From Verrucomicrobiota bacterium (GTDB lineage: Bacteria > Verrucomicrobiota > Verrucomicrobiia > Opitutales > Cerasicoccaceae), in the NCBI GenBank assembly GCA_039818205.1, contig JBCBUK010000014.1:1-64000 (forward strand): 64,000 bases of DNA. Direction: 5' to 3'. This document shows positions 1-3,831 of this stretch, piece by piece. Position 1 is the first letter of the stretch. Each line of letters begins with the position of its first letter. The notes below the pieces were generated by a model. It saw only the letters and a list, made by a program, of their open reading frames with translations. It was not told the origin of the DNA and did not search any database. A program made the position numbers and the translations under genes.

Positions 1-18
1 ATATACAAACAAATCTAG

Positions 19-81
19 ACCGAACCAGCCGGAGTGAGCAACGGAGCCATGCGGCCCCCGCGCTCATCCTCATCGTTAGCT
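19..81 (+). repeat. attC-like integron recombination site 1
   Basis: R'' ACCGAAC (19-25), 5-nt spacer, L'' GGAGTGAGC pairing with L' GCTCATCC with one extrahelical G, 5-nt spacer, R' GTTAGCT (75-81), ATG 14 nt later. Confidence 0.8.
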
Positions 82-94
82 ATCAAGGGAAATT

Positions 95-961
95 ATGAGT
101 ATTGATTCAAGGCAGCGTGAAGTTGCAAGATACAAAAAGGAAATTGCTGACCTTCAAAAGAAAGACTCTGATGAGGCTAAGAAAGAGGTATCTAAAGGTA
201 AAGAAGCCGAAAGAACTTCACGTTCGTTAAACTCGACACGAAGCGAAAGCACTGCCAGAAGCTATCAGAGTAAGTTGATTCGGTTAAGCGATGACATGTC
301 AAAAATATCAGCTAAAAGGGCTGGTATAGCAAAAAAGATAGCGCAAAAAACGACCATACTCCATCGTTCAGAGCAAGCACTCGGAAAAGAGCAGGAAACA
401 GAACGTAAAAAAATAGCAGCTTCAGAAAAAAGAAGAGAGCAAGAACAGCTCTCACATCAACGACAGATAACAAATGAACTTAAGCTTCAAAAAGAGCTTA
501 TCAACTCACAAGAATATAATCTCAGTCAAAATAAAGACTCTGTACAGCATGACGTATTTATTAGCCATGCTAGTCAGGATAAGGATAGTTTGGTTCGGCC
601 TCTTGCAAATGAGTTAACTGAAATGGGGTTTGACGTTTGGTATGACGAAAGTACTTTAAAAGTCGGCGATAGCCTTAGAGAAAAAATTGATCAAGGTTTG
701 TCATCATCAAGGTATGGCATAGTCGTCTTGTCCGAGTCGTTCTTTGCAAAAAATTGGCCTCAGTATGAATTAAATGGCTTAGTTGCAAGAGAGATGCACG
801 GGGTGAAAGTCATTCTTCCAATATGGCATAAGGTATCAAAAGATGAGGTACTTAGCTTTAGTCCAACTTTAGCTGACAAAGTGGCTCTAAACACATCAAT
901 TTCTAGCGTATCTGAAATCGCAAAAGAGCTAGCTGAGGTATTGTCGGAAGATGAAAGCTAA
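95..961 (+). CDS. Coiled-coil + C-terminal TIR-domain protein (TcpB/TirS/AbTir-like, putative NADase); gene cassette 1
   Basis: Charged coiled-coil N-half; TIR motifs DVFISHASQDK, GFDVWYDE, GDSLREKIDQGL, WPQYEL (WxxxE catalytic Glu), ILPIWH. Confidence 0.9.
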   Translation: MSIDSRQREVARYKKEIADLQKKDSDEAKKEVSKGKEAERTSRSLNSTRSESTARSYQSKLIRLSDDMSKISAKRAGIAKKIAQKTTILHRSEQALGKEQETERKKIAASEKRREQEQLSHQRQITNELKLQKELINSQEYNLSQNKDSVQHDVFISHASQDKDSLVRPLANELTEMGFDVWYDESTLKVGDSLREKIDQGLSSSRYGIVVLSESFFAKNWPQYELNGLVAREMHGVKVILPIWHKVSKDEVLSFSPTLADKVALNTSISSVSEIAKELAEVLSEDES

Positions 962-1036
962 CAAGGCAATGAAAAATCGCCCACAAAAAACGTGGGCTAG
1001 ACTCGCTAACGCTCGCCTTTTATTGCGACGTTCGAT
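956..1036 (+). repeat. attC-like site 2
   Basis: R'' AGCTAAC (956-962, contains the TIR stop) is the exact reverse complement of GTTAGCT at 75-81. GCAAT(G)AAAA/TTTTATTGC arms with extrahelical G; inner GCCCAC/GTGGGC stem; R' GTTCGAT at 1030-1036. Confidence 0.85.
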
Positions 1037-1042
1037 GAAGGA

Positions 1043-1459
1043 ATGAAAAAACTGATCCTTAGAGCTATTATCGCCGTCTCACTACTTTTCGTATGCCTGA
1101 TCGCATTCCTGTTCTTGTTTCCTTGGCCACTAGCCACTTCGAGTGAAATCCTTAATCGATATGTTTTGAACCCGACACCGGAGGGAACAGAAATAAAGGA
1201 ACTCTACTACTTCAACCCATCGCTTGGTGATGGTTCTATTCTACTTGAACTCACTCTTACCGAAAATGGAATGAAAGAAGTCCTTGAAAGGTATGAATGG
1301 GAGCATCTCGATTATACATCAGCGCATCTCCTCAGATCATTTGATGTGATAAGCGAAGAAATAGAAAGCGACCTTTTAGGGATAGAGGTAACCGACTTCC
1401 TTCGAATTGAAATTAACCTCAAGGATTCCAACACAGCCATCTTAGCCGCCACAATATAA
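1043..1459 (+). CDS. Hypothetical protein with N-terminal membrane anchor; gene cassette 2
   Basis: ORF with N-terminal hydrophobic helix, bounded by GTTCGAT (1030) and its reverse complement ATCGAAC (1462). Confidence 0.75.
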   Translation: MKKLILRAIIAVSLLFVCLIAFLFLFPWPLATSSEILNRYVLNPTPEGTEIKELYYFNPSLGDGSILLELTLTENGMKEVLERYEWEHLDYTSAHLLRSFDVISEEIESDLLGIEVTDFLRIEINLKDSNTAILAATI

Positions 1460-1461
1460 AT

Positions 1462-1518
1462 ATCGAACTAGCCGGTTCGGATCAACGCCTACGGCGCGCC
1501 CGACTTTGACAATTCGGC
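1462..1518 (+). repeat. attC-like site 3 (degenerate R')
   Basis: R'' ATCGAAC, GGTTCGG/CCGACT arms; R' reads AATTCGGC instead of GTTCGGC. Confidence 0.65.
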
Positions 1519-1527
1519 GAAAGATAA

Positions 1528-1989
1528 ATGAAACTGGAAACATTCACACCCAGACTAAATAGCTTTCTAAAAGAAGCTTCAGCGATTGCCCTAAGATCCT
1601 ATGCACCTTCAAAGGTTCCGACAGTCGGACTGCACATCAATCCGAACGATGGCTATGTTGGACTAGCTACTCATTCCGAAAAAATAGAAGGCAGCGCAGC
1701 TCTTGGAATCCCAGAATTTGACGATCCAGAAGTGCACTACACCCACTTTGACGAATGGGACGAAAACTACTGGAATAAAAAGGAGAATGTATCTTTTGCT
1801 GATAAAGAAGTCAGCATGGAGAGCTGCCAAGGTGACGAAGAATATGCAGAAATCTTTGTAGAATGGTCGATGTCTGTCCTAAAAGATTTTGCACAAAGTT
1901 CAGATTCCCCATTCTCTGGCATTATGCTTTGTGTTCACCCAGTGTCATCAGATCCTTATCGACTTTGGGACCCAAAAATCAAGGCCTAG
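1528..1989 (+). CDS. Acidic hypothetical protein; gene cassette 3
   Basis: 153-aa ORF between attC-like sites; no family recognised. Confidence 0.7.
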   Translation: MKLETFTPRLNSFLKEASAIALRSYAPSKVPTVGLHINPNDGYVGLATHSEKIEGSAALGIPEFDDPEVHYTHFDEWDENYWNKKENVSFADKEVSMESCQGDEEYAEIFVEWSMSVLKDFAQSSDSPFSGIMLCVHPVSSDPYRLWDPKIKA

Positions 1990-2055
1990 CCAGGCGCCCC
2001 TATCAATTCCGTTACAGCTCCGCCTCCACTCCATCGATACATCTCCACGTTACTA
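1984..2055 (+). repeat. attC-like site 4 (degenerate)
   Basis: GCCTAGC (R''-like, AAC>AGC) overlapping the stop; TATCAAT/ATCGATA arms; GTTACTA at 2049-2055. Confidence 0.5.
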
Positions 2056-2146
2056 GCGAGAAAATGCGTGTAGCGAAACGAGCAGAGCGATGTTCCCGAC
2101 TGGGTGAGAGAAGCGAATCGCGGCAATGGAACGGTTCACAGTCAGA

Positions 2147-2491
2147 TTAGATAACGTTGTAAGTGGACTCTCGCTCCTTCGCGTTCAGCTTGGCGATGTT
2201 TTGGGCGGTATAGGGGTTACGTATTTTCCACTCTTGGGCCAATTCGTGAACGGCTTCCACCCTGCCTCGAGGAAAATCTATATCTGATTCGTGAATCATG
2301 TACAGAAGGTGTTCTAGTGCGGCACCAGACTCATTATGATCGATGTAGTCTAAAACGGTAAGCTCTCCATCCATAAGCCCAGCTTGATCGAACGTTGGAT
2401 TTTTCGGATCCCTGTCATGTAGATCACGTATTAATTGCTGCGCTAGAATCGTCGCAGTTCGGATCAGTTGGGTTTGTTCATCAACCTCCAT
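2147..2491 (-). CDS. MafI-like immunity protein (putative)
   Basis: VLDYIDHNESGAALEHLLYMIHESDI resembles the MafI-family helical motif; overlaps the integrase stop. Confidence 0.5.
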   Translation of the reverse strand: MEVDEQTQLIRTATILAQQLIRDLHDRDPKNPTFDQAGLMDGELTVLDYIDHNESGAALEHLLYMIHESDIDFPRGRVEAVHELAQEWKIRNPYTAQNIAKLNAKERESTYNVI

Positions 2492-3587
2492 TGTGTTGAT
2501 TTATGTTGCAGCTCCCACAACTTGGCACAATCTCGAAATACTCCTCAGCATCAGCTGAGCGCCCGGCTCCGTAGTAATGCTCCCAAAGTTCGGTTGCGGA
2601 GCGGTGGGGCATGAGTAGTGCGGTTTTGTCGGCGCTCTGGTGGAGCGTGACGTGATAAGTCGCAAATGAATGACGTAGACCGTTTTTGATATTATCGACT
2701 CCGCAGGCGTCCAGGACGTAGCGCTTACGGTAACGGAACGTTCGATCGGACATGCCCAGGTCCTTACGGGTATCCTCGAGCTTGAGCCATTCCCAAAGGT
2801 TAGGCTCCAGACCTTGCATGATGTGTTTGCGACGCTTCTTCATGATGGCGGCGGGTATGACGATCTCTTGGCGGTCGATGTCGATCATGCTCCAATCCAT
2901 TTTAAATACCGTTTCGGATCGGATGCCGGCGAAGGCCTTGAGCGCCAACAACGGAAGCATGGCGCGGTAGTTGGGATTCGTCGCGTTCTTGCAAAACTCG
3001 AGGAGCGCCCTCACCTCCCCCGGTTTATGAAACTTGATTTCCTCAGGTGGTTGATCCAGCAAGGCGATCTCTTTGACTGGATTGTTCACGACCCACTTGC
3101 GCTGTTTGCAGTAGAGAAAGAAAATCCGCAGGTACGAACGGTAGTTGCGAAACGTCACCGGATGCGTTGTCAGGCCATTCAGAAATGACCGTAATTGATC
3201 CGCGTCAATCTGATACGGTGCCAGGTATGAGAACGCCGGCTCGAACTTCTTCTTAAGAAAGCCAGATAGGTGCGTGTAATAGGATTTGTCTCGGTGTTGC
3301 TTCGTTTCGAGTAACGATTCAACTGCTTCCTGAACGGAGATCGAATGTGTTGGGTAATTCGTTGTGATAAAAGTCTGAACAACCTGCAAAGGATCAAGGC
3401 TTAGGGGCTCACACAGGTCCTTGATTTTCTGCCAGCGATCGAGGTCGTCCGTCGCTCCCTGCTCGTCAATCCAGCGGTCGCGCTCCTGCCGGGTCGCAAA
3501 GAATCGACTTTTCAGCTTCCGATCAACATACCATCGCGCTTCCCATGGCTTATTCCGACCCTCTCGCCTGTGCTTTTTGAAGTTCAT
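2481..3587 (-). CDS. Phage-type tyrosine recombinase/integrase
   Basis: N-terminal arm-binding-like WEARWYVDRKLKSRFF, SAM-like middle, catalytic motifs AGIRSE, NGLRHSFATYH, LMPH and HYY; no IntI-specific insertion recognised. Confidence 0.9.
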   Translation of the reverse strand: MNFKKHRREGRNKPWEARWYVDRKLKSRFFATRQERDRWIDEQGATDDLDRWQKIKDLCEPLSLDPLQVVQTFITTNYPTHSISVQEAVESLLETKQHRDKSYYTHLSGFLKKKFEPAFSYLAPYQIDADQLRSFLNGLTTHPVTFRNYRSYLRIFFLYCKQRKWVVNNPVKEIALLDQPPEEIKFHKPGEVRALLEFCKNATNPNYRAMLPLLALKAFAGIRSETVFKMDWSMIDIDRQEIVIPAAIMKKRRKHIMQGLEPNLWEWLKLEDTRKDLGMSDRTFRYRKRYVLDACGVDNIKNGLRHSFATYHVTLHQSADKTALLMPHRSATELWEHYYGAGRSADAEEYFEIVPSCGSCNINQHNGG

Positions 3588-3741: not shown

Positions 3742-3831
3742 TGGCGGAGAGGGCGGGATTCGAACCCGCGGAAGGGTTTCCCCTTCGCATCTTTAGCAAA
3801 GATGTGCTTTCGGCCACTCAGCCACCTCTCC
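3742..3831 (-). tRNA. tRNA-Ser(GCT)
   Basis: GGAGAGG acceptor stem, anticodon arm CATCT-TTGCTAA-AGATG, long variable arm, GGTTCGAATCC, encoded CCA. Confidence 0.97.

Follow-up and report, generated by a model that had tools for sequence, protein, structure and literature searches.

Relation to described integron systems

CALINs, which are clusters of attC sites with no integron-integrase, are as common as complete integrons, 95% of them having no intI pseudogene nearby (PMC4889954), and have been attributed to the decay or splitting of integrons or to insertion at secondary sites (PMC4889954 and 10.1101/2022.09.11.507474); their origin and status are an open question. IntegronFinder does not detect attI sites outside class 1 (PMC9024848). 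We analyzed a stretch of 64,000 nucleotides from a Verrucomicrobiota bacterium (positions 1 to 64,000 of contig JBCBUK010000014.1, GenBank assembly GCA_039818205.1; hereafter the window), which opens with an integron gene-cassette array. It is a four-cassette array headed by an attI leader, with no adjacent intI gene, and was likely loaded in trans by an IntI integrase encoded elsewhere in the genome, the gene of which is now truncated. Throughout, the genome under study, a draft of 66 contigs, is referred to as G000, its congeners as G001, G002, G003, and G005, and contigs by C-numbers; contig C14 begins with the window.

With at least two attC sites, co-oriented cassettes, and no nearby intI, the array resembles the described CALINs (PMC4889954) and is one by definition, not a complete integron; it would act like an integron platform. 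An earlier note on this DNA had offered an integrase-less CALIN as one of two readings. By the definition used in IntegronFinder this is correct, but it overlooks what matters most, namely that the array keeps a copy of the genome's own attI leader. CALINs are regarded as decayed or split arrays severed from attI and from the cassette promoter (Pc), whereas here a whole leader, present in multiple copies, is retained. One attI-bearing CALIN is already in print: in Shewanella prophage M16-3, Qi et al. 2023 (PMC9892861) describe a CALIN that likewise has its own attI, lies on a mobile element, and has a complete integron available to it. That, however, is a single case with intI on the same prophage, whereas we find five to nine dispersed copies per genome, in two unrelated integron lineages within one genus, away from intI. 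Mobile integrons on miniature inverted-repeat transposable elements and integron mobilization units (MITEs/IMU), transposons, and genomic islands (PMC3575428) also place a platform on a mobile vehicle that is helped in trans, but here a tRNA-Ser island of 6 kb, which encodes a tyrosine integrase of its own, is the vehicle, and neither a class 1 platform nor resistance genes are involved. In single attC sites lacking integron-integrases (SALINs) and attG insertions (10.1101/2022.09.11.507474), cassettes likewise lie away from intI, and an opposite-strand insert with a 114-aa open reading frame (ORF) described below may be one of these; the main array, unlike them, begins at a true attI copy and not at a chance genomic site. 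For Xanthomonas CALINs, mobilization in trans has been stated in general terms (10.1101/2025.06.18.660453), and the truncated attI sequences within class 1 arrays (PMC12901181) are a different phenomenon. Our literature search, which left outside most subscription journals and supplements (and with them possible attI tables), found no report of genome-wide multiplication of attI platforms or of Cerasicoccus integrons.

Compared with a complete sedentary chromosomal integron, the array shares the leader, crossover base, and attC anatomy of the intI-linked arrays of G000, G001, and G003 but differs in having no intI in cis, in being short, and in that the intI of its genome is without the catalytic half.

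The array and its attC sites

The features of the array in the window are as follows.

1..18, plus strand, 3′ end of the cassette 0 ORF (88-aa hydrophobic product; the remainder is on C2, which overlaps window 1–77)
19..81, plus strand, intact attC site 1 with its crossover after base 75, where the assembly branches into C14 or C45
95..961, plus strand, cassette 1, N-terminal helical region and TIR domain of the AbTir/TcpB family
956..1036, plus strand, attC site 2, boxes intact
1043..1459, plus strand, cassette 2 ORF, 138 aa, hydrophobic N terminus, no Pfam or PADLOC family
1462..1518, plus strand, attC site 3, decayed
1528..1989, plus strand, cassette 3 ORF, 153 aa, no family
1984..2055, plus strand, attC site 4, decayed

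The ORFs at 95–961, 1043–1459, and 1528–1989 lie in the same orientation, as the earlier note had said, with spacers of 60–80 nt between them; they are low in GC (41–44% versus ~53%), and the start codons of cassettes 1–3 are located 13, 6, and 9 nt, respectively, downstream of R′. To score the sites, we used a covariance model trained on 13 attC sites from G001 and G003 and on none from G000. In the 64-kb window, sites 1 and 2 were the two best matches of this model (E 1.9e-9 and 0.006, respectively), site 4 came fourth (E 0.45), and site 3 was the last of 18 (E 9.4). The model is biased toward this clade: two class 3 sites kept out of the training were recovered (E 0.001 and 0.25), and both sites of the class 1 locus were missed. 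In a second test, a box-and-pairing profile trained on 18 sites of other genomes gave 28.0 bits for site 1, 22.2 bits for site 2, and 8.5 bits for site 4 and did not report site 3, against a background of 1.2 Mb of shuffled DNA in which the maximum was 15.6 bits and 19 scores exceeded 8. Pairing of the L boxes about the extrahelical base is 7/7 at sites 1 and 2, 5/7 at site 3, and 4/7 at site 4, and pairing of the R core is 3/3 at the first two sites and 2/3 at the last two. At site 3, the crossover G has been replaced by A, and the site fits a 6-nt spacer; site 4 is without AAC, and a 29-nt portion of it is 93% identical to an intact attC on C16. Further, the first seven bases of the cassette are complementary to its own R″ at 7/7 positions in cassettes 0, 1, and 2 and at 4/7 in cassette 3. 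Plain hairpin folding compared with shuffles did not separate the attC sites from chance; site 2 alone folded better (z −2.8), as another structure.

We conclude that the array is real and that its distal half is decayed. Sites 1 and 2 exceed chance by themselves, whereas sites 3 and 4 are credible only via their position, exact boundaries, and context. The integron cassettes proposed in the earlier note are thus supported by covariance-model matches at the expected attC ends, and the complementary ends that it described for cassettes 1 and 2 agree at every position; as to its four attC sites, the outside-trained model found them all, with the reservation that the last two are decayed.

The leader and its copies

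Past the overlap with the window, C2 carries, in order, the rest of cassette 0, a 264-bp leader (C2 346–609) ending at the crossover, an AP2-like ORF, a gene with a RelA/SpoT domain, and, last, the repeat that forms attR (2349–2368). The leader is 93% identical to a copy on C16, i.e. the DNA between the truncated intI and the intI-linked array of G000, and 70% identical to the same intI-adjacent DNA of G003. As it lies divergently upstream of intI both in G000 (C16 to C39) and in G003, the leader corresponds to intI–attI intergenic DNA and, as far as sequence can tell, is the attI platform heading the array; this is also what makes the head of the orphan arrays, i.e. those with a leader and no intI, identifiable. 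A search of the leader against Rfam gave no match. The earlier note had suggested the distal end of a longer integron and a search for intI and attI to the left. The former does not hold, as there is only one more cassette and no intI upstream; the latter yielded the attI-bearing leader on C2 and no IntI similarity in the 2.8 kb upstream of the crossover.

In G000, the leader is found at seven places as copies or part-copies, five of them nearly whole. G003 has nine copies (15 matches on 9 contigs), one of which is with intI, and among 61 genomes of the order the leader occurs only in these two. When the exact attI motif of this family was searched in a species-level genome collection, all seven matches fell in one Cerasicoccus arenae record, and metagenome contigs gave no match. 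Cerasicoccus is a genus of Verrucomicrobiota, in keeping with the verrucomicrobial host that the earlier note had thought probable.

We aligned 14 copies (8/9 from G003 and 6/7 from G000), 12 of which have a 5′ edge in common and are 262–264 nt long when measured from there up to the crossover G. All 14 open at the same G, in a GTT (12 copies) or a GAT (2 copies). Pairwise identity averages 0.89 over the attI block, 0.52–0.67 over the 5′ block, and 0.37–0.44 between them, and it is 0.26–0.38 upstream of the leader and 0.41 just past the crossover; the leader is thus conserved most where IntI should bind, with its upstream (5′) blocks also conserved, and service in trans at many attI copies becomes directly testable. 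A start codon follows each copy within ~25 nt, and no two first cassettes are alike across the aligned copies. Further downstream, two G003 orphan arrays have a cassette in common (92% over 259 nt), the intI-linked array of G003 shares one with an orphan array (91.5% over 200 nt, which run to the contig ends), and shared pairs are also seen in G001 and G002. The window cassettes had no match to the compared cassettes of other arrays.

A second leader family, unrelated in sequence to the first, precedes the whole intI of G001 and is found at four other G001 places, at four places in G002, and at one or two in G005. Each of the checked G001 copies heads one to three cassettes. An intact IntI and four orphan sites occur together in G001. 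Seven copies of this family were aligned (L125, L128, L131, L134, L126, L129, and L135), and a 14-bp palindrome, a candidate regulator site, is located ~170 nt before the crossover and is exact in five of them. We also note a 200–300-bp sequence that is repeated many times within arrays of G005 (L152–L155; 80–94% identity).

Outside the genus, G035 gave one weak extra match, and the query used for G036 covered attC, not attI. In another family of the order, locus L177 (G174:C32, 2134–10500) has six attC hits beside a tyrosine integrase and an attI-like end heading the array, with no intI in the 2.8 kb upstream and two partial extra matches.

The integrase of the genome is truncated

The IntI proteins of G001, G003, and G005 score above the cut-off of TIGR02249, and their alignment with IntI1 and IntI3 shows that they have the IntI insertion; the G001 frame is whole, and G003 intI is full-length with one in-frame stop. 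The G000 IntI behind the C16 leader is 72% identical to that of G003 and stops after ~180 residues. The TIGR02249 search of G000 gave nothing above the cut-off, G003 IntI as a query found only N-terminal remnants (on C39 and C1) and Xer-like genes in this genome, and a profile of the IntI insertion searched against six frames of G000 found nothing (best E 0.076), compared with E 4e-14 or better for three controls. The intI remnants, all N-terminal, occupy four places (C39 7534–8079, C48, C1 92538–92642, C1 195012–195362, and C7 95518–95775), none of them with the catalytic half; the remnant on C39 has two alternative continuations. A whole IntI elsewhere in the genome was therefore found for G001 and not for G000. 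Because G000 is a draft in 66 contigs, and its assembly forks in the vicinity of intI, it is likely, and not proven, that a catalytic IntI is absent from this genome, and the array is accordingly likely to be frozen.

A tRNA-Ser island carries the array

Downstream of the array, the window contains the following features.

2049..2129, no strand, island backbone, 81 bp, beginning at the last crossover triplet
2130..2522, minus strand, insert absent from the C1 paralog, with minus-strand GTT at both ends and a 114-aa ORF at 2147–2491
2481..3587, minus strand, tyrosine integrase of the island, 368 aa, with Arg-223, Arg-305, His-328, and Tyr-338 conserved and without the IntI insertion
3742..3761, minus strand, attL core, the 3′ 20 nt of the tRNA
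3742..3831, minus strand, tRNA-Ser(GCT), a hotspot for integration within this genus

The 3′ 20 nt of the tRNA are repeated exactly at C2 2349–2368, whereas five other tRNA-Ser sequences match over 12 nt or less. The repeat is thus specific to the window tRNA-Ser(GCT) and delimits an island of ~6.05 kb, from window 3761 to C2 2368; given the join of C2 to C14, the direct repeat of the tRNA 3′ end is present at the far end of the island. With this repeat and an integrase with its catalytic residues beside tRNA-Ser, the earlier note was right to place the array in a tRNA-anchored island. We saw no Rep, relaxase, or packaging genes between the island repeats. The 81-bp backbone is 98.8% identical to the DNA closing the array of a paralogous island on C1, and the integrase has a 68% identical paralog at tRNA-Ser(GGA) on the same contig. 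The window tRNA-Ser(GCT) has a syntenic counterpart in four congeners, with other integrases next to it in three of them (G001, G003, and G005), which marks it as a hotspot and leaves no empty site for comparison.

Several further loci of G000 were noted alongside the island. The genome has two different tRNA-Ser(GCT) genes, the window copy and one on C43. A second island of the same build, with the 81-bp backbone and an array of its own, is located at tRNA-Ser(GGA) (C1 625555–628459 and C39 5110–7640); the leader on C39 next to a 19-nt repeat is probably the far end of this C1 island. At C9 209800–211580, a leader and two cassettes are followed by a junction in which a core of the tRNA-Ser(CGA) type is flanked by the two island arms, and then by the start of another leader, which ends in a fold-back. 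A tRNA-Arg(CCG) island (C5 74952–79650) has a 63-nt direct repeat, a short integrase, an HNH/AP2-like gene, and five attC sites and gave no leader match. Several small elements anchored at tRNAs are found on C42, at C7 214800–219050, and on C48. They have genes for a rolling-circle Rep or a Zot-like protein, families that make them inovirus-like, and some of them are fused to truncated genes.

Capture in trans and the alternatives

We regard capture in trans by IntI at dispersed attI copies as probable. IntI from one locus would insert cassette circles by recombination at an identical base of every attI copy, and each leader copy would serve as a working capture site and a cassette promoter, expressing the first cassettes. 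The 6-kb island would integrate at, and excise from, tRNA-Ser(GCT) by its own integrase and so move the platform without intI, and, because IntI is lost and the last two sites have decayed, the array would now be mostly frozen cargo; the TIR protein and the gene with a RelA/SpoT domain are likely to serve in defence or as toxins. As to how the leader multiplied, duplication of a whole integron followed by intI decay would fit the copy on C1, and carriage on tRNA-Ser islands would fit three G000 copies. Excision of the leader by IntI at its 5′ edge is a possibility that fits the window junction only: this edge is a GTT in the window and has four extra bases in the C1 paralog, and the other copies do not start with GTT. 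A comparison with empty sites gave no result, as the flanks map to different G000 contigs for eight of the nine orphan loci with both sides testable.

A broader proposal, to which we give slightly less than even weight, is that the genus has a distributed integron, in which a 200–265-bp attI leader has been copied without intI to many chromosomal places and to small tRNA-Ser islands, so that one integrase would serve five to nine capture-and-expression sites and the islands would be integrase-less mobile integrons. Many CALINs elsewhere would then be live platforms, not debris, overlooked because attI was not searched for. If service in trans at many attI copies holds, one integrase would keep several cassettes in the first, expressed position simultaneously, and attI-only islands would offer a route for spreading capture sites between genomes.

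Several observations weigh against the main explanation. The bottom strand of site 1 has a predicted L-box pairing of 0.73, but sites 2–4 reach only 0.005–0.017, compared with at least 0.57 in 10 of 11 controls; at site 2, competing hairpins dominate the predicted fold despite intact boxes. A sigma-70 scan of the window leader found no promoter in the cassette direction, and Pc is therefore not demonstrated. Multiplication of attI is seen in one genus only. The intI remnants of G000, three of its own lineage and one of a second lineage (on C7), fit whole-integron duplication followed by decay. The join of C2 and C14 is one of two 77-nt overlaps, and there are several assembly forks in mobile DNA. 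Finally, distant relatives of the island integrase have an attC match, a single one each time, near 0/80 and 2/79 loci. An alignment-based search for relatives of this integrase gave 23–35% identity only, 17 genome loci of relatives with short flanks contained one partial 33-nt attC match, and viral contigs searched with the window integrase alone gave no relative; the link between the integrase family and arrays is local, not general.

The alternative that survives best, although we consider it unlikely, is that the orphan arrays are leftovers of whole integrons, duplicated or acquired, which were filled before they lost their own intI, the leader being a passive remnant or a promoter only. 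This is the standard account of CALINs (PMC4889954), and it draws support from intI remnants directly upstream of the leader at 92 kb on C1 and, alone, at 195 kb on C1, as well as from the decayed second lineage on C7. Against it, just one of 24 orphan upstream regions (1.5–2.8 kb) has an intI remnant, the other 23 having none, and the attI block is much better conserved than the rest of the leader. The orphans of G003 also speak against leftovers: they lie between unrelated housekeeping genes, with no tRNA found near, and five of them form a clade (98/98) apart from the intI-linked copy of the same genome, with 82–94% mutual identity, a common upstream edge without intI, and different first cassettes.

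It is much less likely that the island is an assembly product, i.e. that the end of C2 belongs to C45, which bears a Rep gene, or is a collapsed repeat, so that the array would have an unseen left neighbor, possibly a true intI. C2 overlaps both C14 and C45 by 77 nt, as C45 does C14, and the assembly forks just after the GTT of site 1 (window 75–77), exactly at the crossover. Further, C39, C45, and C48 contain fusions of truncated genes at stretches of short homology, C9 ends in a fold-back, and the pairing of arm sites, which over 16 nt supports the joining of C1 to C39, barely supports that of C14 to C2 (9 versus 8 nt). Yet the C2 repeat fits the window tRNA-Ser alone, the ends of cassette 0 on either side of the overlap are fully complementary, and no IntI catalytic region is present anywhere in the assembly. 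The C45 branch (L029) itself contains a 142-aa ORF, a ribbon-helix-helix protein, a helix-turn-helix protein, a rolling-circle Rep of the G2P type, and an incomplete gene paralogous to the island integrase; it is either a third element with cassette 0, a junction made by IntI, or an artefact.

That the cassettes were dropped singly at a secondary (attG) site, the leader being an unrelated small repeat that happened to be a good target, is highly improbable: cassettes do insert efficiently at genomic sites (10.1101/2022.09.11.507474) and the insert at 2130–2522 resembles such an event, but the leader, which has no Rfam relative, is the intI-proximal DNA of two integrons, a position that largely refutes this view already, and the second family repeats the pattern with another intI.

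A repeat resembling repetitive extragenic palindromic (REP) sequences precedes four G003 leaders, and at L110 (G003:C3 125292–128232) a leader and a six-cassette array lie between two inverted copies of it. We considered this repeat as a general vehicle of the leader and rejected it, as there are only 21 copies in G003 and none in G000, and G003 gave no match to a Y1 transposase.

Cargo genes

The product of cassette 1 has a full-length match to the PADLOC family PDC-S66 (E 2e-106) and matches the AbTir/TcpB TIR structures (PDB codes 7uwg and 4lqc; E 1.5e-55), with the glutamate of the W-x-x-x-E motif retained. We assume this glutamate to be catalytic. On this similarity, cassette 1 is predicted to encode an NADase; it shares the TIR domain with the coiled-coil TIR NADases AbTir and TcpB, the difference being that here the domain is in an integron cassette of a marine verrucomicrobium. 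The TIR domain was found in eight other genomes; a single locus among these clearly belongs to an array, and its product differs at the N terminus. AbTir has been put in a defence-associated family, but in the same source it had no anti-phage activity in E. coli (10.64898/2026.10.06.757174), which counts against a defence role for cassette 1; a search of 10.1101/2024.07.02.601686 for TIR, PDC, and Thoeris gave no match. For cassette 3, no relative was found among 16 scored candidates.

The insert at 2130–2522 is probably a fifth cassette, which would have entered at a secondary site and whose attC would have shrunk. The product of its 114-aa ORF resembles MafI immunity proteins (atlas score 0.91, TM 0.72). 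At the other end of the island, the RelA/SpoT-domain gene (L028, C2 1042–2130) has a partial match to PADLOC PDC-S33 and possibly encodes a small alarmone synthetase or a toxin.

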